64,000 bases of DNA from an uncultured Candidatus Saccharibacteria bacterium (GTDB taxonomy: Bacteria > Patescibacteriota > Saccharimonadia > Saccharimonadales > Saccharimonadaceae). The notes beneath the pieces were generated by a model. The model was not told the DNA's origin. It saw only the letters and a program-made list of their open reading frames with translations, and ran no database searches. Of this stretch, positions 22,980 to 40,454 are shown piece after piece (the stretch's first letter is position 1; every line of letters starts with the position of its first letter). The DNA lies in contig CAMVFY010000001.1 in the NCBI GenBank assembly GCA_947166895.1, positions 7,522 through 71,521 of the forward strand, given 5' to 3'. The position numbers were made by a program, and so were the translations under genes.

Positions 22980-23659
22980 TGATAATCACTAACTTAAAGC
23001 AGGGGGTGAAGAATCCGAATCGGGTGAATGTGTTTGTTGACGGAAAGTTTGAGTTTTCGTTAGATATCACGCAGGTAGTGGATTATAAATTGAAGGTCGG
23101 AAAGGAATTAACGGTTAAGGAGTTTGACGAGTTAAAAAAGGCGAGTGAATTTGGAAAGTTATATCAAAGGACTTTGGAATGGGTGCTAACGCGACCGAGG
23201 AGTGAGAAAGAGGTCCGAGATTACTTGGTGAGAAAACTGAAAACATCTTCTTCGGGACGCTCCTCGCTCCCGTCTTCACGGGGCTCGTCGCTGCGTCCTC
23301 GTAGCAACTGCGGATGCCCCTCAGAAGATATTTTCCAGTTTTCTCAGGCAATCATCGACCGTCTAATCACCAAGGGGTATCTGGATGATAGAAAGTTTGC
23401 AGAGTGGTACGTTCAGAATCGGTTTGTGAAGAAGGGGGTGTCGAGGAAACGTCTTCAGATGGAACTGATGAAAAAAGGGATTTCTCGCGAGATTATTGAT
23501 GAAGTATTAAATGCACGAAATGATGAGGAAGAAATTTTAAAGATAATCGCCAAAAAGCGGACAAAATATACGGACGAAAAGCTTATTCAGTATCTTTGTC
23601 GGCAGGGGTTTTCGTACGAGCTGGTGCGTAATCTTGTTCAGACTTACGAAAAGGATTGA
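22979..23659 (+). CDS. recX: regulatory protein RecX with in-frame insertion
   Basis: Follows recA; NRVNVFVDG, RPRSEKEVR, YLDDRKFA, YLCRQGF. Confidence 0.88.
   Translation: MIITNLKQGVKNPNRVNVFVDGKFEFSLDITQVVDYKLKVGKELTVKEFDELKKASEFGKLYQRTLEWVLTRPRSEKEVRDYLVRKLKTSSSGRSSLPSSRGSSLRPRSNCGCPSEDIFQFSQAIIDRLITKGYLDDRKFAEWYVQNRFVKKGVSRKRLQMELMKKGISREIIDEVLNARNDEEEILKIIAKKRTKYTDEKLIQYLCRQGFSYELVRNLVQTYEKD
23237..23338 (+). repeat. GC-rich palindromic element inside recX
   Basis: Arms ctgaaaacatcttct / agaagatattttccag; inner ends TTCGG...CCTCAGAAG match the pnp-leader copy; 102 bp. Confidence 0.75.
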
Positions 23660-24198: not shown

Positions 24199-24954
24199 TT
24201 ATATCATATCGGTAAAATTTGAAAGTGGCGTAGAATCTTTGATGTCATAGGTTCCAACCTTGGTGCGGCGCAGGGCGGTGAGATAGGCGCCAGTTTGAAG
24301 CTTGGCGCCGATATCTTCGGCTAACGTGCGGATGTAAGTGCCGGAGCTGCAGTGGATGCGGAGTTTGAGTTCGGGGTAGTTATAGCTTAAAATGTCGATG
24401 GAATAGATTTCAACTTCGCGAGAGGGGATTTTGAAATCTTGGCCTTTGCGAGCGAGCTTGTAGGCACGTTCACCGCCTATTTTGATGGCGGAGAATTTGG
24501 GTGGGGTTTGCACAATTTTACCAACGAATGTTCTGGTAATTGTCTCAACAGCATCCAACTCGGGGCGCGTCGCTCGCGCTCGTCGGCACGGGGCGAGCGC
24601 GCTACTCCTCGCCTTGCCAGGCTCCGGACCCCCTTCGTTTGGATACTGTTGAGACTTTGAAAATGGTTGAATCATTCCCTCCGGGTCGCCGGTGGTGGAG
24701 GTGTAGCCGAGTTTCAGGGTGGCTTCATAGATTTTGTCGAGTTTTAGAAAATCGGTGGATTTTTTGGTCATTTGGCCGGTTAAGAGGATTAAGAGGCCGG
24801 TGGCGAAAGGGTCTAATGTCCCAGTGTGGCCGACTTTGACTTTGTGGCCGAGTTTGGCTTTTAGATACCCACGGACTTTGGCGACGACGCCGAAGCTAGA
24901 AATCCCCGCGGGTTTGTCGATTAGGATAACTTGATTATCGGGAGTATTTTCCAT
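24199..24954 (-). CDS. truB: tRNA pseudouridine(55) synthase with in-frame insertion
   Basis: IDKPAGISSFGVV, KVGHTGTLDPFATGLL, PPKFSAIKIGG, CSSGTYIRTLAEDIG. Confidence 0.96.
   Translation of the reverse strand: MENTPDNQVILIDKPAGISSFGVVAKVRGYLKAKLGHKVKVGHTGTLDPFATGLLILLTGQMTKKSTDFLKLDKIYEATLKLGYTSTTGDPEGMIQPFSKSQQYPNEGGPEPGKARSSALAPCRRARATRPELDAVETITRTFVGKIVQTPPKFSAIKIGGERAYKLARKGQDFKIPSREVEIYSIDILSYNYPELKLRIHCSSGTYIRTLAEDIGAKLQTGAYLTALRRTKVGTYDIKDSTPLSNFTDMI
24542..24655 (+). repeat. GC-rich palindromic element inside truB
   Basis: 17-bp arms gtctcaacagcatccaa / ttggatactgttgagac (16/17); core starts CTCGG; 114 bp. Confidence 0.8.
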
Positions 24955-31108: not shown

Positions 31109-31109
31109 A

Positions 31110-31139
31110 TCAAAAATAGCCCCGTGGGGCTTTTTTGAT
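31110..31139. terminator. bidirectional intrinsic terminator
   Basis: tcaaaaatagcccc-gt-ggggcttttttga. Confidence 0.8.
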
Positions 31140-31244
31140 TGAGAATATTTAAAATCCGGTTCGGTTCTAAAACTAAAAGAGTTACCATTCGGATAGAGTG
31201 GTAACTCAAACAACCCGTGGCGGTGGCTAGGCGCCGCCCTTATA
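31112..31244 (-). ncRNA. candidate small RNA
   Basis: Orphan TTGACA-17-TACACT promoter on minus (31278-31250), two hairpins, ends at the bidirectional terminator. Confidence 0.4.
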
Positions 31245-31352
31245 AGTTAAGTGTAGGCTATATGGCAAAATCTGTCAAGATTGTGGCGTGTGCCAGAAAA
31301 AAGAACAAGGGAAGTTTTTGTCTTATAAGGTGGATGTTGTATAATTGGAAGA

Positions 31353-31898
31353 ATGGAAAAGATACGGAATTTTTGTATTATTGCGCATATTGATCACGGG
31401 AAGTCGACGATTGCAGATCGGATGATGGAGCTCACGGGGACGGTGGAAAAGCGCGAGATGAAAGCGCAGCTGCTCGATTCGATGGAGCTGGAGCGGGAAA
31501 AGGGGATTACGATTAAGCTCACTCCAGTGACGATGCAATGGAAGGGCTACACCTTGAACCTGATTGACACGCCGGGGCATGTGGATTTTTCGTACGAAGT
31601 GTCGCGGTCTTTGCAAGCGGTGGAGTCGGCGGTGCTAGTGGTAGATGCGACGCAAGGAATACAGGCGCAGACGCTGGCGAATGTATATCTAGCTTTGGAG
31701 CAAGATTTGATGATTATTCCGGTAATTAACAAAGTGGATTTGCCGGCAGCGGATGTTCCGAGGGTTGCGGCGCAAATTATAGATTTACTTGGATGTAAGC
31801 GGGAAGAAATTATTGAGGCGTCTGGCAAAACTGGGCTTGGTGTTGATAAGATTTTGGATGCAGTAGTGGAACGAGGCCCGGCGCCAAGAAAACCGTAA
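31353..31898 (+). CDS. lepA: elongation factor 4 (LepA), N-terminal half: complete G domain
   Basis: [56 protein letters not shown]; stops after the GPAP linker. Confidence 0.95.
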
Positions 31899-31976
31899 AA
31901 TTAAAGCGAAAGCGGGTTGACTTTGAATTGTGGAGTGATATACTAATATACAATATAGAACTCTAAAATAAGGCGT

Positions 31977-33545
31977 ATGAAAATGGCAATAAAAAAAGAA
32001 CCCGTGGGCGGGGATAATTACAAGGTAAATGCCGGTAAAAGTGGCATAGTGAAGCTTTTTGCGTGCGATGCGGCGGCGTTGATGCTGACGGTGCTGGTGG
32101 GGACAGTGTTAGCTAGCGTAAGAGCTGCGGCAAGCGACACGGTACAATCTAGAGCGGCGGTGACGGTGTCGTCATCTTGCCAGCTTGAGGCCGAGGTGGA
32201 CACGGCACATGAAGCGGAGGTAACCGCCAGCACCTATCGGGACAACATCGGGCAAACGACGATTACTGCGACTTGTAATGACGTGAATGGTTATGCGGTA
32301 TATGCGATTGGCTATACTAATACGGAGTTTGGTCGTAATGATATGCTGGGTGAGAATACCGGCAGGACGATTGCAACGGGTTCCGCTACATCGGGTAGCG
32401 TGTCTAACTGGGCGATGAAGCTAACTGCTGTATCGGGCGAAGTAGCGCCGACGATCGAGACGGGTTACCAGGCCTACCATGCGGTGCCAGATGAATACGA
32501 AAAGGTGGCGAGCTATGGTGGTAGTACGGTAAACTACGTGGCGGGCTCACAGTTTAGGACGACATACGCAACATATGTAGCAAGTGACCAGGCGCCAGAT
32601 ACGTACGTTGGTAAGGTAAAGTACACCTTAGTACACCCAGCGGATACAACCAATGCGCCTTGCTCAGCAACTTATACAATTGGCTATAATGCGAATGGTG
32701 GTACTGGCAGTATGGATAGCCAGACGGGATGTCTTGATACACCAATTACATTACTGCCAAACGGCTTTACGCCGAAGGCACCTCTAAACGAATACCAATT
32801 CGGTGCATGGAACACAGAGGCGGATGGTAGTGGGTACATTTACTGGCCGGGCCAAGCGGTGACGAACCTTTCTGCCCCGGATGGAATGGTGATACTTTAT
32901 GCAATGTGGATTCCGCGCTATATTCAGGACCTTACTCCTGGGGTGTGCCAGGCGATGACGGCCGAAGATCCGCTTACGATGATTGACCGTAGGGATGGTA
33001 ATGATTATACGGTCCGATACCTGCAAAACGCTTGCTGGATGACGCAAAACCTAAGACTAACCGATACGGTAAGCTCACAATACTCAAACTTTAGCACTAA
33101 CCCTACCTTTAACCCGTGTGTGGGTGACCTAACTGCAGGTAACACTTACGATGAGGCACGATGCCATGATTCGGGAAGTACTGAAACGGGTGTATGGTAT
33201 AACTACGCTTCAGCTTCGGCTGGCACCATCACAGGAAGCAGTAATAGTACAGCCGCTACTGAAGATATCTGCCCTGCTGGATGGCACTTACCAAGCTACG
33301 ATACAGCTAAGCCAGCTGGCTCCGTTAATAGTCTACTAGATTTGCCGATTAAATCTTACTTCTCCCCGGTTACCGGCGGCTACTACAGCGGCGGTAATAT
33401 CAGCAGTACCGGCATCGGTTACTGGTGGTCGTCTATCGCCCTCAATACCACGAATCGCTACGCCCTGTACTACAGTGGTAGTAGCCTGAATACCCGCAGC
33501 CTCGTCAGGAACAGCGGGTTCTATATTCGCTGCGTTAGAGAGTAG
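31977..33545 (+). CDS. DGR target protein: exported, Flg_new-like repeat plus C-terminal FISUMP-like domain
   Basis: N-terminal hydrophobic segment; YNANGGTG...WNTEADGSG; WMTQNLR, ICPAGWHLPS, GYWWSS, FYIRCVRE; 3' end is the VR. Confidence 0.92.
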   Translation: MKMAIKKEPVGGDNYKVNAGKSGIVKLFACDAAALMLTVLVGTVLASVRAAASDTVQSRAAVTVSSSCQLEAEVDTAHEAEVTASTYRDNIGQTTITATCNDVNGYAVYAIGYTNTEFGRNDMLGENTGRTIATGSATSGSVSNWAMKLTAVSGEVAPTIETGYQAYHAVPDEYEKVASYGGSTVNYVAGSQFRTTYATYVASDQAPDTYVGKVKYTLVHPADTTNAPCSATYTIGYNANGGTGSMDSQTGCLDTPITLLPNGFTPKAPLNEYQFGAWNTEADGSGYIYWPGQAVTNLSAPDGMVILYAMWIPRYIQDLTPGVCQAMTAEDPLTMIDRRDGNDYTVRYLQNACWMTQNLRLTDTVSSQYSNFSTNPTFNPCVGDLTAGNTYDEARCHDSGSTETGVWYNYASASAGTITGSSNSTAATEDICPAGWHLPSYDTAKPAGSVNSLLDLPIKSYFSPVTGGYYSGGNISSTGIGYWWSSIALNTTNRYALYYSGSSLNTRSLVRNSGFYIRCVRE

Positions 33546-33570
33546 CTAGTCCCCCTACAGGCCTCCACCC
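33353..33570 (+). repeat. DGR variable repeat (VR) including putative IMH
   Basis: 218 bp matching the reverse complement of 35626-35843 with 22 mismatches, all at TR adenines. Confidence 0.97.
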
Positions 33571-33579
33571 CAGGAGAAC

Positions 33580-33604
33580 GCGCCTCGGTCTGAGACCGAG
33601 GCGC
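33580..33604. promoter_or_regulatory. post-VR hairpin/cruciform
   Basis: gcgcctcggtc-TGA-gaccgaggcgc, perfect 11-bp stem 9 nt after the VR. Confidence 0.85.
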
Positions 33605-33630
33605 AGAGGTAATAAAAGAGGATTGACGAG

Positions 33631-34491
33631 ATGTTGCCAAAAACTGATCTGAACAAGAAAGAAGTTAGAGAAGCGATTTCGCACAATTCGCGTGGGCGTG
33701 GCAGAAGTGATGCGGAAAAGCGTGATTCGTTTGCTAAGTATCAAGACAACAAGAAAAAGGTAATTGAGCTGGAGCGCAAAAATTTACAATATCTCATTTT
33801 GTTTCCTGCTTCGGATGTTGATGTGAATAAAAAATATCGGTTTTATAACATGGGTGGTAATTCGGCGATTATTTACGTTCACGAAATTGCTCCAAGGCTA
33901 AAGCGCAAGGCCAAGATGCGTCGCGATATGGATCCTTGTTCGGAGAAAGAGAAGTTTCACAGTGGCATCTGTTCGATTGCAAATCTTGAAGGTTTGGAAG
34001 CGGCACTTCTTACTATCGACGTGAAGCGAATGAGCGTGAAAGGTGAAATTGTAATTTTTAAGCTAAACCGCGAGTATTCAAAAGACGAAATCAAAAACAT
34101 GTTGAAGCTGGAGCAGCAGAGGCTCGATTCTTTGAACGAACTAATTTACTCAAAAGTACTTTATCCGGATGTACACAAAAAAATCATTGATTTGAAACGT
34201 TCGATTCCGGCGAAGGTTAAAAACATGGAGAAAACTTATCGTGAAGTGGTGGGTATGGAGATGATAAAGTCTTTGATGACGCTTGTAAAAACATATTCGC
34301 AGGTTGCCCATGGTAATGATTCTCCAGAAAACGGTGGTAATGTAATGCTTGCTGCGTGCGATAATCTGCTCGCGGAAGTGTCGATGATGAATGAGCTTCG
34401 GGTGGGGGAAGTTGATGCGTGTATTCGGATAGCAAGTACAATAGTTGAACTAAAAAGAGCAATAAAGGGGAGGCTAAACAAGATACAATGA
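33631..34491 (+). CDS. DGR accessory protein: C-terminal Avd-like four-helix bundle, N-terminal possible MutS-I-like domain
   Basis: Directly upstream of RT (ATGA overlap); C-terminal about 110 aa helical with P..VK.M.K.YR...G pattern. Confidence 0.65.
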   Translation: MLPKTDLNKKEVREAISHNSRGRGRSDAEKRDSFAKYQDNKKKVIELERKNLQYLILFPASDVDVNKKYRFYNMGGNSAIIYVHEIAPRLKRKAKMRRDMDPCSEKEKFHSGICSIANLEGLEAALLTIDVKRMSVKGEIVIFKLNREYSKDEIKNMLKLEQQRLDSLNELIYSKVLYPDVHKKIIDLKRSIPAKVKNMEKTYREVVGMEMIKSLMTLVKTYSQVAHGNDSPENGGNVMLAACDNLLAEVSMMNELRVGEVDACIRIASTIVELKRAIKGRLNKIQ

Positions 34492-35624
34492 AGGTAAGTG
34501 ATGGGAACAACCGAGAATGGCTGCATGACGTGGAGAATCGGTTGTTGTTTGAACTATACATAGCTTACTTACAGGCGAGGGCTGGTGGAAAGCGTGGAAC
34601 TTTTGATGAACATAAGTTTGAGGTGAATGAGTTTGAGAATTTAATAAACTTGCGAGATAGCTTGATTGATAAAACTTATCGTCCGTCGAGAGGGACGGCA
34701 CACGTGATTTTTAAGCCTGTGATTAGAGAAATATTTGCGGCGTCTTTTCGCGATAGGGTGGTGCATCATTTTATTTACAATACGGTTTGTGATTGGTGGG
34801 ATAGACATTTTATTTATGATTCATATTCGTGTCGGGAAAATAAGGGAACGGATTTTGGAATTAAGAGGTTAAGCAGAATGTTGCAATCGGTAACGGATAA
34901 TTATAAAAAAGAAGCTTGGGTAATAAAACTGGATGTGCAAGGATATTTTATGAGTTTGCCACGTAAGCAGCTGTATCGGCGAGCAATATGGGGGCTTGAT
35001 AGACAATTTGAAAATAATCATAATTGGAAATACGAACTAGTAAAGTTCCTGTGGGCACAAACAATATTTGATGATCCGTGTGCTGGGGTGCGAAAGAAAG
35101 GCTGGCCTGAGGATTGGAAAGATTTGCCGGCTTCGAAAAGTTTGTTCACGCAATTGCCGGGGGTCGGGATTGTAATTGGTAATTTGACTTCACAATTGCT
35201 GTCGAACATCTATTTGGACCAGCTGGATAGATATATTAAGTATGAGTTAGGCTGGAAGTATTACGGTAGATATGTGGATGATTTTTTTATCATTGTAACT
35301 GAAGAACAGTTGCCGCGAGCTTTAGAGGACGTAAAGAGGATAGAGGCATTTTTGGGGAGACTAGGACTAACGTTGCATCCTAATAAACGCAAAGTACAGC
35401 CGGCTCGGAATGGAGTGGAGTTTTTGGGGGCAGTTGTATATCCTGGTAGAGTACATCCTGGGAAACGAATAGTAAAAAATGCTGGGATGGCGTTTTCTGA
35501 AGTTGTTGAGGGGGTGAAAGATGTTGAGAGTGTCGTGTCTTATATGGGGCACATGAAACACTATAATACCCAGATGTTAATGACAAAATTGTTTGACAAA
35601 GCTGGGTGGGACTATAGGAGTTAA
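34488..35624 (+). CDS. DGR reverse transcriptase
   Basis: REIFAASFRDRVVHH, DSYSCR..KGT, KLDVQGYF, IGNLTSQLLSNIYL, RYVDD, FLG; no group II intron X/En domains. Confidence 0.96.
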   Translation: MKVSDGNNREWLHDVENRLLFELYIAYLQARAGGKRGTFDEHKFEVNEFENLINLRDSLIDKTYRPSRGTAHVIFKPVIREIFAASFRDRVVHHFIYNTVCDWWDRHFIYDSYSCRENKGTDFGIKRLSRMLQSVTDNYKKEAWVIKLDVQGYFMSLPRKQLYRRAIWGLDRQFENNHNWKYELVKFLWAQTIFDDPCAGVRKKGWPEDWKDLPASKSLFTQLPGVGIVIGNLTSQLLSNIYLDQLDRYIKYELGWKYYGRYVDDFFIIVTEEQLPRALEDVKRIEAFLGRLGLTLHPNKRKVQPARNGVEFLGAVVYPGRVHPGKRIVKNAGMAFSEVVEGVKDVESVVSYMGHMKHYNTQMLMTKLFDKAGWDYRS

Positions 35625-35625
35625 T

Positions 35626-35843
35626 GGGTGGAGTCCTGTAGGGGGACTAGCTACTCTCTAACGCAGCGAATATAGTTCCCGTTGTTCCTGTTGTTGTTGT
35701 TGGTATTCAGGCTACTACCATTGTAGTTCAGGTTGTAGCGATTCGTGGTATTGTTGGCGATAGACGACCACCAGTAACCGTTGCCGGTATTGTTGATATT
35801 ACCGCCGTTGTAGTTGCCGCCGGTAACCGGGGAGAAGTAAGAT
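35626..35843 (-). ncRNA. DGR template repeat (TR), antisense to the RT operon
   Basis: Minus strand has 20 AAY codons in the VR frame; a minus-strand TATAAT lies at 36082-36077. Confidence 0.95.
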
Positions 35844-36117
35844 GCTTGGAGGACGCACTACTTCTTACAACAAATACACCGAAAGGAACTTCAGCCTAAT
35901 ACCCATTAGGAACGGAACGAAGAAGAAGCAACTTAAAACCTACTTGGTTCGTAAGTCAGGTAGGCGCTATGACCTTCACTCATCACGAAGGGTGCTTCTG
36001 GCCTCCACCCTTACTGCGACCTTTTAGCGACACCGTGATCTACTGCCAGGTCGGAGGGATATTCCCCCATGTTGTTATTATATTATGTTATAATTATCTT
36101 AGTAATGAGAGAGGTGT

Positions 36118-36963
36118 ATGATGCGAAATGATATGTTTTTAATTACGCCGATGAACCAAAAGGTGTATCTAAATCGGGGGGAAGAATACCGTGGGTCGAT
36201 TCGGGTGGTGAACCCGGCGGAAGCAACAAGAGATTTTCACTACCGGGTGGACGTGGCACCATACGGTGTAGTGGGCGAGGGGTATGATGCGGACCTTACG
36301 AGCGAGTCGCAATGGACGCAGATAGTGGATTGGATTACGATTGAAAATAACGAAGGCGTGCTGGCGCCAAACGAAGTGCGGGATGTGGAGTTTGTAATAA
36401 AAGTGCCTGAGGATGCGATAGTGGGGGCGCAAACGGCAGCACTAGTAGTGAGGCAGGAAGATGACGAGAAGGCTATCGATGGGGTGAAGGTAGAGAACGT
36501 TTTTGAGATGGCGAGTATTATTTATGGCCAGGTGCTTGGAATTGAGGAGCACGATGCGTCGATACTAGCGATGGATGTTCCGGGGTTTTCGACAACGCCG
36601 GACGTAGCGGTGACGGCGAGTTTTGACAATCATGGGAACGTGTTTGAAGAGGCAGAAACCAAGATTGTTGTAAAAAATGCACTGAGCGGTGAAGTGATAC
36701 TTCCGACTAGTGAGGCTTCTGGTGAATATACCGAGATAGTAATGCCCGACACTACTCGTAAAGTGACGCGTAAGATAGACGATTTGCCGATGCTGGGGGT
36801 GGTACATGTTGAATACCAAGTGAAATATAACGGTGAAGAAATGATGATGGAGAGGGATTTGGTGATTTGCCCGATTTGGTTTATGGTGATGATGGCGGTA
36901 GTAGTAGGGATGATCATAACGACGATTGTAATGCTGATAAAAAAATATCATAAAAAAGCTTGA
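36118..36963 (+). CDS. DUF916/WxL-interacting-like membrane-anchored protein
   Basis: ITP...YL..G..Y.GSI.V.N beta-sandwich start, FDNHGNV, C-terminal IPIW-like segment plus TM plus KK. Confidence 0.55.
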   Translation: MMRNDMFLITPMNQKVYLNRGEEYRGSIRVVNPAEATRDFHYRVDVAPYGVVGEGYDADLTSESQWTQIVDWITIENNEGVLAPNEVRDVEFVIKVPEDAIVGAQTAALVVRQEDDEKAIDGVKVENVFEMASIIYGQVLGIEEHDASILAMDVPGFSTTPDVAVTASFDNHGNVFEEAETKIVVKNALSGEVILPTSEASGEYTEIVMPDTTRKVTRKIDDLPMLGVVHVEYQVKYNGEEMMMERDLVICPIWFMVMMAVVVGMIITTIVMLIKKYHKKA

Positions 36964-37067
36964 CATTTTATAGCATTAGCGTTATATTGAGGTTACAAAA
37001 GGTCATACAAAAATAAAAAGGTCATACAAACATACCAAGCTTTGGTGTTTTGTGCCAAGGAAAACAC

Positions 37068-39182
37068 ATGAAAAACACAATAAAACAAAAACGAGTAATC
37101 GCTGGTGCGGTGTTTTTTGGTATTGTTGCGGTAGTTGCTAGTATCGCAGGCTCTGAGAAAAGTTATGCTGAGGGTATTTTGTGTAACCCTAACGCAAGGA
37201 CGATAGAAAGCGCAGTGTGTATTCAGGATGTGAACCAGTCGGTGATTAACAGTATGGAAGAAGGAAATGAATACTATTTGATCGATTCGCGTGATGAGGA
37301 AGAGTACATCGTGGGGAAGCTAGCGGATGGGAAGGTATGGATGCTCGACAATTTGCGCCTAGGTGGTACAAGCGAGATACGCTTGACATCGAGAGATACG
37401 AATATAGATGAAAGTGTGAACGGTGGGGAGTTTATTTTGCCTTCTGCAGACGACTGGGCGGATAGTTATGAGGAGCCATATTTGAACGACTATTATAAGT
37501 GGGATTGGAGCATTGATGAGGATTGGCTAATTGGCAATTATTACAACTACTGTGCGGCGTCGGCGGGGACCTATTGTGGCGAAGAGGGGGAAGAATTTGG
37601 TGACGCTAAGTATGATATTTGTCCGGCGGGATGGAGAATGCCAACTGGTGGATATGGTGGTGAGTACGAAACTTTGTATAATGCGTATGGGGCTGAGCTT
37701 GAACCTTTTGGCATGGCGTTTCACCTGACGCTTTCGGGAAGATTTTATGATTATGGTGCGGGTTATATTGATGAAGACGGGTATTTTTGGAGTTCATCTT
37801 ACCGAGATGGAGCTAGAATGAGATATTTGCTCGTGAGCCGTAACGATGGCGTGGCCGCAACATCCGGATTTAATCGTGATCGGGGGTATTCGATGAGGTG
37901 TGTGGCTAAGGGTAATGAGGCGCCGGAGCCTGAACCAGAAGCGGTGGTGTGTAATGCGAGTGCTAAGAATATTGACGAGGCATCTTGTATGCAAGATATG
38001 AATCCGCTAGTAAAGCACAGTATGTCGGTGGGGCAGCGCTATACCTTGGTGGATAAGCGTGATGGCGAAAAATACACTGTGGCTAAACTTAGAGATGGCA
38101 ATGTGTGGCTGCTAGATAACTTGAGGCTGGGCAAGAATGAGCCGATTACCTTGACTGCCGAGGATACTAACCTTGTAGGTGGTTCGTTTGTTTTGCCGGC
38201 TGGCGGAAATTGGGAAAATACTTATGTTGAGCCGAAGCTGAGCATATCGAATATTTACGAGAAAGTGGAAGCTGTGGTGCCACTAGACGTAAATCCTGAC
38301 ATTAACGTTATTAAAAGTAATTTACTTAAGGGAAGTGCGAATATTGTGAACGGGCTAACGATTGGTAATTATTATAATTACTGTGCGGCGTCGGCGGGAA
38401 CTGTGTGTGATGAGAGAAATACGAATTTTGCGAGTGCGGAATCGGACATTTGTCCGGCTGGTTGGAGAATGCCAACCGATGCGGCGGATGGGGAGTTTGC
38501 CAGATTGTATAGCCTTTACGATAATAATTATGATAGTTTTATGGGGGCGCTTAGATTACCTTTAAGTGGGCGGTTTTATAATGGCCATGTAGGGTACCTG
38601 AATTATTCGGGGTACACTTGGTCATCGACTTATCGAGACGAGGAGAGAATGAGGATTGCGACGGTATCTAGAGGTAGCCTGGATTTGGTGAGTAGTCACT
38701 ATCGGGATCGAGGATTTTCGATGAGATGCGTGGCGAAGGTGGGGGATTATGGAAGTGGTGAATACGAATGGGTGTACGGGAATGTGTATAGCGATGAGGA
38801 TGATAACAGGTTGGTCTTAAAAATTGACTTTGACATTGATGCGTTAATTCGGGTTGAAGTTGATGGCAACGAACTTGATGTTAGTAAGTATGTTTTGGAA
38901 GAAGGAAGTACCATAATTAATTTTAAGGATGAGTATTTAGACACATTAGCGGATGGAACTTACGCGGTAAAGGCAGTGTACAAGGATGGGTTAGAGATTA
39001 ATACGGATTTTATCGTGATAAATTCGGTGGTGGTGCCAAATACTGGAACGATTGCTTCTGGTGAAATTAACTCTAAAAATGACCTTACGGGGATTGCGGT
39101 GATGGGCGGCGTGTTAGCTACGGTTACCTCACTTGGCGGATTTGTTGTTTATAAAAGATACCACAGAAAAATGTCCTTTTAG
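37068..39182 (+). CDS. surface protein with two FISUMP-like domains and VPNTG anchor
   Basis: Twice WMLDNLRLG, GNYYNYCAASAG, ICPAGWRMPT, SMRCVAK; VPNTG followed by TM and basic tail; TTGACA-17-TATATT promoter. Confidence 0.82.
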   Translation: MKNTIKQKRVIAGAVFFGIVAVVASIAGSEKSYAEGILCNPNARTIESAVCIQDVNQSVINSMEEGNEYYLIDSRDEEEYIVGKLADGKVWMLDNLRLGGTSEIRLTSRDTNIDESVNGGEFILPSADDWADSYEEPYLNDYYKWDWSIDEDWLIGNYYNYCAASAGTYCGEEGEEFGDAKYDICPAGWRMPTGGYGGEYETLYNAYGAELEPFGMAFHLTLSGRFYDYGAGYIDEDGYFWSSSYRDGARMRYLLVSRNDGVAATSGFNRDRGYSMRCVAKGNEAPEPEPEAVVCNASAKNIDEASCMQDMNPLVKHSMSVGQRYTLVDKRDGEKYTVAKLRDGNVWLLDNLRLGKNEPITLTAEDTNLVGGSFVLPAGGNWENTYVEPKLSISNIYEKVEAVVPLDVNPDINVIKSNLLKGSANIVNGLTIGNYYNYCAASAGTVCDERNTNFASAESDICPAGWRMPTDAADGEFARLYSLYDNNYDSFMGALRLPLSGRFYNGHVGYLNYSGYTWSSTYRDEERMRIATVSRGSLDLVSSHYRDRGFSMRCVAKVGDYGSGEYEWVYGNVYSDEDDNRLVLKIDFDIDALIRVEVDGNELDVSKYVLEEGSTIINFKDEYLDTLADGTYAVKAVYKDGLEINTDFIVINSVVVPNTGTIASGEINSKNDLTGIAVMGGVLATVTSLGGFVVYKRYHRKMSF

Positions 39183-39227
39183 AGTGAAACGGAGGGAGAC
39201 GAGGCCACAATATGGTATAATACGGGT

Positions 39228-40454
39228 ATGAATGGTACTCGGGCTTTGATATTTGATTCGTATTTTGATGATTACCGTGGGGTGGTACTATACGTTAGGA
39301 TTTTTGAGGGGAAAATTCCGAAGGGGGCGGAAATTTTGATGATGGCAGCAGGGACAAAGGGGTTAGCGCTTGAAGTGGGGGTGTTAACTCCCAAAATGTC
39401 ACCGCGAGACAAACTTGACACTGGTGAAATAGGCTATATTGTAACAAACCTTAAAACAACGCGTGAGGCAAAGGTGGGCGACACGGTTACTTTGGTGCAT
39501 GAGCCAGCTAGTGAGGCTTTGCCTGGATATAAAAACGTGTTGCCCTTTGTGTACGCGGGGTTTTTTCCTGTTTCGAACGACCAATATAAGGAGCTAAAGG
39601 AAGCGATAGAAAAACTGAGTTTGTCGGACTCGGCCTTGCGATACGAACCGGAGAACTCGCCGGTTTTAGGATTTGGGCTACGAATTGGGTTTTTGGGGCT
39701 TCTTCACATGGATATTATACGAGAGAGGTTGGAACGGGAGTTCGGACTAGATTTGATTGTAACAAACCCGTCAACGAATTATGAAGTAGTAATGGCGAAC
39801 GGTGAGGTTCGTGAAATTAAATCAGCAGCGGATTTGCCGGACGTGTCGGAGATTTCTGAAATACGAGAGCCTTGGGTAAAGGGCGAAATAATTTTACCAA
39901 AATCAATGATTGGAAACGTGCTGAATTTAATCAACGAGAAGCGTGGGCATCAGACGAATTTGTCGTATATTGAGACCAAAGCGGTGATAGATTTTGAGGC
40001 GCCGATGGCAAATTTGCTGACGGATTTTTATGACCAGTTAAAATCGGTAACTTCGGGGTATGCATCCTTTAATTATGAGATTAATGGTTATCGGGCGGGA
40101 GATTTGGTGCGAGTGGATTTTTTGGTGGCAGGGCACAAGATGGATGCTCTCTCGGTGATGGCGCATCGAAGTGAGGCGGATGCAATTGGGCGAGAAGTGA
40201 CAAAAAAGTTGAAAGAGGTAATTCCACGTCAAAATTACGAGGTGGCTCTCCAGGCGGCGATTGGGGCGCGAGTGATAGCGCGTGAAACGATTGGTGCGTA
40301 CCGAAAGGACGTGACAGTAAAAATTCACACTGGGGATCGCGATCGTAAGGCAAAACTGCTAGACAAGCAGAAGCGTGGTAAGGCGCGGATGAAGAGGTTT
40401 GGTAAGATCGACATCCCATCGGAAGCCTTTACGGTGATGCTAAAACGTGATTAA
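39228..40454 (+). CDS. lepA: elongation factor 4 (LepA), C-terminal half: domains II, III, V and CTD
   Basis: ALIFDSYFDDYRGVV, GEIGYI, GLRIGFLGLLHMDII.ERLEREF, YASFNYE, KKLKEVIPRQ, YRKDV, KAKLLDKQKRGKARMK. Confidence 0.95.
   Translation: MNGTRALIFDSYFDDYRGVVLYVRIFEGKIPKGAEILMMAAGTKGLALEVGVLTPKMSPRDKLDTGEIGYIVTNLKTTREAKVGDTVTLVHEPASEALPGYKNVLPFVYAGFFPVSNDQYKELKEAIEKLSLSDSALRYEPENSPVLGFGLRIGFLGLLHMDIIRERLEREFGLDLIVTNPSTNYEVVMANGEVREIKSAADLPDVSEISEIREPWVKGEIILPKSMIGNVLNLINEKRGHQTNLSYIETKAVIDFEAPMANLLTDFYDQLKSVTSGYASFNYEINGYRAGDLVRVDFLVAGHKMDALSVMAHRSEADAIGREVTKKLKEVIPRQNYEVALQAAIGARVIARETIGAYRKDVTVKIHTGDRDRKAKLLDKQKRGKARMKRFGKIDIPSEAFTVMLKRD

Follow-up and report, generated by a model that had tools for sequence, protein, structure and literature searches.

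In the window analysed here, a stretch of 64,000 nucleotides from an uncultured Candidatus Saccharibacteria bacterium (GenBank assembly GCA_947166895.1, contig CAMVFY010000001.1), the gene lepA, which encodes the translational GTPase EF4, is divided into two intact genes. The halves, designated lepA-N and lepA-C, lie 7,329 bp apart, both on the + strand, and are separated by a cassette containing a diversity-generating retroelement (DGR) and genes for surface proteins (Table 1). The cut falls between the G domain and domain II of EF4, and comparison with related genomes indicates that fission of lepA is recurrent, real and maintained by selection. The two halves probably function as a non-covalent two-subunit EF4, the interdomain linkers acting as insertion-tolerant slots for cargo.

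Integrity of the two halves

Both halves were recognised in profile searches. The N half matched Pfam GTP_EFTU (5e-57), and the C half, whose product begins MNGTRALIFDS in the list of open reading frames (ORFs), matched GTP_EFTU_D2, EFG_III (weakly), EFG_C and LepA_C (PF06421, 1e-40). Against the NCBIfam lepA equivalog TIGR01393 the N half covered positions 2-183 and the C half positions 190-594 of 595, with only about six linker positions of the EF4 profile missing across the two. Neither half alone reaches the equivalog cut-off of 533.9 bits (295.9 for the N half, 533.7 for the C half), and the summed scores lie far above it; in place of a single EF4 polypeptide of ~600 aa there are two ORFs of 181 and 408 aa. 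Since the alignments to E. coli LepA (PDB 3CB4) are colinear for both halves (N half 1-178 with residues 1-183, C half 5-405 with residues 192-592), the cut is placed in the linker 184-191 (E. coli numbering), which joins the G domain to domain II, with nothing missing. The N half terminates 4-5 residues past the conserved PAP motif, and the C half starts 4 residues ahead of the first strand of domain II. Motifs G1-G5 are intact in lepA-N, where NKVD can be read in the translation, and in the alignments to 3CB4 the G motifs and the C-terminal domain (CTD) are conserved as in one-piece EF4. No frameshift or internal stop was present in either half in the ORF list. An earlier note on this DNA had described lepA as cleanly split around some 7.3 kb into two intact genes free of frameshifts, with essentially nothing of EF4 missing; the ORF list, Pfam, TIGR01393 and the 3CB4 alignments all agree with that description.

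Genome-wide, one LepA_C domain and one lepA-type G domain were found, which makes the pair the sole lepA of the genome. The paralogues BipA and EF-G are uninterrupted.

A chimeric contig could in principle have produced the same picture, the genome being a metagenome-assembled draft (660 kb in 33 contigs, 93% complete). The exact N-half protein is, however, encoded on 14 public contigs, and the layout was read in 8 of these. In all 8, which come from different samples and assemblers, lepA-N has pnp upstream and the DGR target gene downstream; the four contigs that are long enough also show the complete order as far as lepA-C, with the DGR in between. Contigs with this layout include NCBI GCA_017515785.1, are up to 92 kb long and, judging by their record names, probably come from ruminant gut metagenomes; some of the strains are only ~96% identical at the nucleotide level. 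With identical gene order in at least 8 contigs, the misassembly that the earlier note had allowed for is excluded, and the probability that the split is an assembly artefact is negligible.

Selection on the halves was estimated by the NG86 method. For both halves, and for split-split and split-intact pairs alike, nonsynonymous divergence (dN) was 0.06-0.15, synonymous divergence (dS) was >1.5 or too saturated for NG86, and dN/dS was 0.02-0.05 wherever computable. The proteins of split species are 83-93% identical while dS is saturated. In a maximum-likelihood tree of 35 sequences the terminal branches of split forms (0.048-0.089) fall within the range of intact ones (0.042-0.19). Both halves are under strong purifying selection, and relaxed selection on either is excluded by these values.

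The same data bear on the reading of this locus as a lepA knocked out by the DGR island and now decaying as a pseudogene. Dispensability of the gene speaks for it, lepA being dispensable in E. coli laboratory culture (PMC4324249) and in Southlakia (PMC10633639). Against it, the frames are free of lesions, the proteins have stayed alike across split species at saturated dS, and the cut is common to species without this DGR. The pseudogene reading is effectively refuted by the comparative data and retains only a minute probability; the split is not a knockout, as the earlier note had also held.

Cuts at the same linkers in other species

A survey of Saccharibacteria for lepA splits at the linker between the G domain and domain II (G/II linker) was carried out as the earlier note had proposed. 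In genus g1, which includes this genome, most of the ~45 species seen have an unbroken lepA of 588-760 codons, and six, this one and five others, are cut at the G/II linker. The content between the halves differs from species to species: the 7.3-kb DGR cassette in this genome (G000), one histidine-phosphatase gene in G013, a 329-aa ORF with a histidine-phosphatase gene in G271, 52 nt only in G753, and an adenylate-kinase-like gene in G009 and G703, where the halves are convergent on opposite strands. This linker is also the site of the cut in about 20 of the 21 species of g26, a sister genus. The g26 junctions read (G341, G602, L085) have the N-half stop abutting or overlapping the C-half start, and one ORF is inserted between the halves in G402. 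G447 (genus g278) and G489 (genus g320) are likewise cut at this linker. Both halves were retained in every split genome examined where the contigs permitted the check.

Because the tree requires at least 3 state changes for the G/II cut on well-supported branches, lepA appears to have undergone several independent fissions, or fissions followed by re-fusions, at this linker. Since the cut is shared by other species and lineages, the DGR insertion probably did not cause it and landed in a pre-existing slot.

Some irregular loci were encountered in the survey. An apparent second N half in G271 was rejected as a duplication: near-identical copies of lepA-N and its upstream gene stand at the ends of contigs C4 and C7 (L022 1-1409; L023 300-1817), and are most likely an assembly overlap of strain variants. 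In G312 (C46 6041-7869) lepA matches occur in three frames, for which a pseudogene or sequencing errors are possible. G746 carries, besides an intact copy, a second divergent lepA-like gene (C2 119259-120821, 52% identity).

The G/II linker is hypervariable in intact congeners also, where unrelated low-complexity sequence adds 2 to 68 residues. At least 6 of the 17 intact congeners have a GC-rich palindromic repeat in frame in this linker, in either orientation (L007, L011, L012, L013, L017 and L019), and gain 10-68 aa from it. The repeat is ~100 nt long and is present in at least 12 copies in this genome, on contigs C4, C5, C8, C9, C10, C11, C17, C20, C22, C29 and C32; within the window, copies lie at 24542-24655 and 23237-23338, and the repeat is found in frame in truB and recX. 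It inserts in frame into protein genes and resembles the Rickettsia palindromic elements. Whereas the repeat lengthens the linker of intact congeners, the linker in this genome is cut, and no remnant of the repeat was seen at the cut edges. The linker between domains II and III (II/III linker) contains a 60-aa in-frame insert in G203. Because in-frame inserts occur at both positions, both lepA linkers tolerate insertion. The view of the earlier note that the interdomain linker is a tolerated insertion hotspot gains support from the cargo, which differs by species, and from the palindromic element.

The II/III linker is itself a second cut site (..TVTLxKY / ..VEPLPGYK..), used in many other genera of the family. 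From search E-values, approximately 77 of the 401 family genomes would belong to this class, and all nine genomes opened in the score class were split at the II/III linker. The gap holds one to nine unrelated genes, among them those for a GNAT, a Nudix hydrolase, methyltransferases and nucleoside-deoxyribosyltransferase-like proteins, and reaches 3.7 kb and 11.4 kb in the largest cases. Stop and start codons of the cargo genes often overlap in the ATGA manner. The group includes Candidatus Nanosynbacter (TM7-076, TM7-087), in which near-identical C parts follow gaps ranging from 715 nt to >2 kb, and Southlakia. For the cultured Southlakia epibionticum, Table S1 of Wang et al. 2023 (PMC10633639) lists SEML1_0727 (G domain and domain II), SEML1_0726 (hypothetical) and SEML1_0725 (LepA C part); the split is not remarked on in that paper. 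Outside the family, G357 is cut at the II/III linker with a methyltransferase in the gap, and most other Saccharimonadales families have an intact lepA.

Open-frame values such as 763 had suggested an in-frame, intein-like insert at the II/III position. This candidate was rejected when ORF calling gave three separate genes with the cargo in another frame. Nanosynbacter-like lepA genes also carry an extra in-frame insertion of 30-76 aa near G-domain residue 65 (L032 1150-2121; L033 13790-14866 (G516, G418); G746 C4).

The signals for expression of the halves were compared among the split genomes. In this genome the 7-nt distance from TATAAT to ATG implies that the start of lepA-N is probably leaderless. 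The earlier note had credited the C half with a leaderless promoter of its own, 6 nt ahead of the ATG, and the extended -10 sequence TGGTATAAT is indeed present in the raw sequence at 39213-39221; the lepA-C transcript is predicted to be leaderless and to start from it. The C halves of G013, G271, G753, G009 and G703 are preceded by the same module (TGGTATAAT or TGTTATAAT, 6 nt, ATG); in G013 and G271 a terminator-like hairpin with a T-run after it stands immediately before the module. A genome-wide count in G000 gave 132 ORFs of at least 100 aa whose start lies 5-8 nt downstream of a perfect TATAAT; 102 of these also have the TGn extension. Leaderless gene starts served by extended -10 promoters appear to be common in this organism. 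The g26 and g278 N halves end in ..PKEVE*, codons that spell AAGGAGGT or GGAG 6-8 nt ahead of the C-half start. A Shine-Dalgarno sequence (GGAGG) thus lies inside the end of the N half, whose stop codon adjoins or overlaps the next start, the classic layout for translational coupling. That one problem has two expression solutions, the leaderless promoter and the embedded Shine-Dalgarno sequence, favours adaptation over decay.

Between pnp and lepA-N the spacer measures 244 nt here (31109-31352), including a promoter and a terminator hairpin, against 1 nt (TAAgATG; L041 9997-10003) in strains ~96% identical and 554 nt in L047 (8290-8843). Because of this variation the lepA-N transcription unit differs among strains.

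The DGR and other cargo between the halves

Table 1. Positions, in the window, of the lepA halves, their promoter-like sites and the features between them.
Feature	Position	Strand	Description
lepA-N promoter-like site	31318..31345	+	TTGTCT, 16 nt, TATAAT; TATAAT ends 7 nt before ATG
lepA-N	31353..31898	+	G domain of EF4, 181 aa; ORF list, Pfam, NCBIfam, 3CB4 alignment
DGR target gene	31977..33545	+	522 aa; N-terminal membrane/signal segment, Flg_new repeat, Fib_succ_major-like C-terminal domain carrying the variable repeat
Variable repeat (VR)	33353..33560	+	Homology to the template repeat extends 15 nt beyond the target-gene stop codon
286-aa ORF, DGR accessory-gene position	33631..34491	+	No family match (Pfam, NCBIfam)
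DGR reverse transcriptase (RT)	34488..35624	+	378 aa; Pfam RVT_1, 4e-13
Template repeat (TR)	35636..35843	-	Local alignment
281-aa protein, C-terminal membrane anchor	36118..36963	+	Weak WxLIP_PGBD match only
710-aa surface protein	37050..39182	+	Signal peptide, two Fib_succ_major-like domains, C-terminal anchor
Putative lepA-C extended -10 promoter TGGTATAAT	39213..39221	+	6 nt, then ATG at 39228
lepA-C	39228..40454	+	EF4 domains II, III, V and LepA-specific C-terminal domain, 408 aa

The TR/VR pair was missed by a repeat search at default stringency and was found by local alignment, on opposite strands. All mismatches between VR and TR (21/21) fall at TR adenines. When the VR was compared with that of strain L039, in which the TR and both lepA halves are identical to those here, all differences (27/27) again fell at TR-A sites. 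Because both sets of changes are confined to TR adenines, the DGR in the lepA gap is taken to be real and active. The local TR has no match in the 710-aa surface protein.

Relative to the RT and the target gene, the TR is on the other strand and converges with the end of the RT, so that TR RNA would be transcribed antisense to the RT. The 286-aa ORF stands directly upstream of the RT and overlaps it, and no Avd-type family match was obtained for it in Pfam or NCBIfam. Homologues of the RT were found in 45 of 61 congener genomes, at loci unrelated to lepA, the best one being 65% identical; because of this, the placement of a DGR between the lepA halves is specific to this species. Elsewhere in G000, a second DGR-type RT (contig C6 1254-2375) is 52% identical to the one in the lepA gap.

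No homing endonuclease or recombinase was detected among the five cargo ORFs with Pfam, which matched only RVT_1, Fib_succ_major, Flg_new and, weakly, WxLIP_PGBD. NCBIfam, applied to two of the five, gave no match.

Working of the halves and significance of the split

Several mechanisms could rejoin the halves into one chain, namely a split intein, RNA trans-splicing, readthrough or ribosomal bypass, or programmed excision of the skin/nifD type. In G341 the N-half stop codon is followed directly, and in frame, by the C-half ATG, and readthrough would be possible there in principle. The junction frames differ among species, however (in frame, a one-base overlap, or 52 nt apart and out of frame), and in G009 and G703 the opposite orientation of the halves forbids it. 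No Hint domain was found with Pfam; the ends of the halves adjoin in the EF4 profile but for ~6 linker positions, and a combined length equal to that of one-piece EF4 leaves no room for intein fragments. Rfam gave no group I or II intron or other RNA family at E 0.05, the sole listing (mir-1000, 24.6 bits against a gathering score of 50) being dismissed as chance. The 7.3 kb differ from the excised skin and nifD elements in having neither a recombinase domain nor significant direct repeats or a target-site duplication at the gap edges, and each half has its own stop or start. A rejoined or spliced product is accordingly very unlikely, and the finding of the earlier note that neither a target-site duplication nor an intein motif is visible still holds. 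Two possibilities are left: the halves associate as proteins, or each has a function of its own. In G009 and G703 only protein-level association can reunite them, because they are convergent on opposite strands.

The end of lepA-N (31869-31876) and the region just upstream of the lepA-C promoter (39198-39205) have an 8-mer, ACGAGGCC, in common. About 0.15 such 8-mer matches between the edges are expected by chance, and this one may be meaningless or a faint relic of insertion.

The explanation held with fair confidence is the two-subunit EF4, which the earlier note had also proposed and which the comparative data support. A stable fission of lepA at the linker between the G domain and domain II would yield two polypeptides, LepA-N (the GTPase domain) and LepA-C (domains II, III and V with the CTD), the latter being transcribed from its own leaderless extended -10 promoter. 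The two would associate through the native G domain/domain II interface, in solution or on the ribosome, to rebuild EF4. The cut would predate the 7.3-kb cargo, and the space between the halves would serve as a tolerated slot filled by different genes in different species, here by an active DGR with its surface-protein target.

A number of points weigh against this explanation. Co-assembly and EF4 activity of the halves are deduced from sequence. In all known translational GTPases the G domain and domain II form a rigid unit, which is here separated. The halves have no added interaction tails, and convergent compensatory substitutions were not found in the G/II-cut lineages, apart from one weak D/E column. 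Finally, SEML1_0727, SEML1_0726 and SEML1_0725 were all non-essential in transposon sequencing (Tn-seq) of Southlakia, according to Table S1 of PMC10633639. Because both pieces are non-essential there, selection on the halves would act under conditions outside those sampled in that Tn-seq.

The halves could also be functional and yet uncoupled, the free G domain serving as a small GTPase and the C piece as a GTP-independent ribosome- or tRNA-binding factor. Separate convergent transcription units in G009 and G703, a promoter for each half in this genome, and the lack of interaction tails or of a co-varying signature fit such a division. It is nevertheless unlikely: every checkable split genome keeps both halves, neither half evolves faster than in intact relatives, and conservation of all G motifs and of the CTD matches that of one-piece EF4. 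The pieces are, moreover, translationally coupled in one operon in g26 and at the II/III cut, which fits a requirement for matched amounts.

A more tentative proposal, possible but rather doubtful, is that the interdomain linkers act as recombinase-free cargo slots, with the halves as homology arms that move cargo between strains or species and with a G domain that can be supplied in trans. lepA is among the most conserved bacterial genes, EF4 being near-universal, and Saccharibacteria are naturally competent; for these reasons the halves could serve as long homology arms. The split would then be kept partly for useful cargo, here the active DGR and its adhesin-like target.

Returning to the two-subunit EF4, its domains and their order, its G motifs and its LepA-specific CTD are those of canonical one-piece EF4/LepA (TIGR01393; PDB 3CB4, 2YWE, 4W2E/5J8B). 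It differs in being encoded by two genes with their own starts, cut at E. coli residues 184-191 and 7.3 kb apart. No published description of a naturally split EF4 or other translational GTPase was found in a literature search. Nanoarchaeum equitans, an ultra-small symbiont with a reduced genome, has stable fissions of conserved multidomain proteins at domain boundaries; lepA is unlike these in that it can be cut at either of two sites, its splits have several origins and the slot for cargo between its halves is hypervariable.

The closest published analogue is the nrdA gene in pieces of Aeromonas phage Aeh1, in which a conserved enzyme gene is likewise broken into two by inserted DNA, in that case the homing-endonuclease gene mobE (Crona et al. 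2010, PMC3045599). In that report the NrdA pieces are described as reassembling as proteins, without RNA or protein splicing or DNA rearrangement, and terminal tails derived from the insertion as essential for assembly. The lepA halves, in contrast, have neither tails nor an endonuclease, their cargo is variable, and their cut, placed at a domain linker, is met with repeatedly across many cellular lineages. In the fractured genes of Dassa et al. 2009 (PMC2677866) a conserved gene is also in two parts with a foreign gene between them, a free-standing endonuclease gene. Those halves are rejoined by trans-splicing split inteins, whereas the lepA halves contain no intein sequence.

A natural two-gene EF4 that has arisen repeatedly and is kept by selection would, if the two-subunit reading is confirmed, show that the core of a translational GTPase can assemble from separate chains, and would offer ready-made split points for structural biology. 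The II/III version occurs in cultured, genetically tractable Saccharibacteria (Nanosynbacter, Southlakia), in which the matter is directly testable. Such genomes will be miscalled wherever an annotation pipeline or a marker-gene set assumes one single lepA. The variable cargo between the halves points to a previously undescribed hotspot of genome flexibility in ultra-small epibionts, one that in this genome sets a surface-protein diversifier beside a core translation gene.

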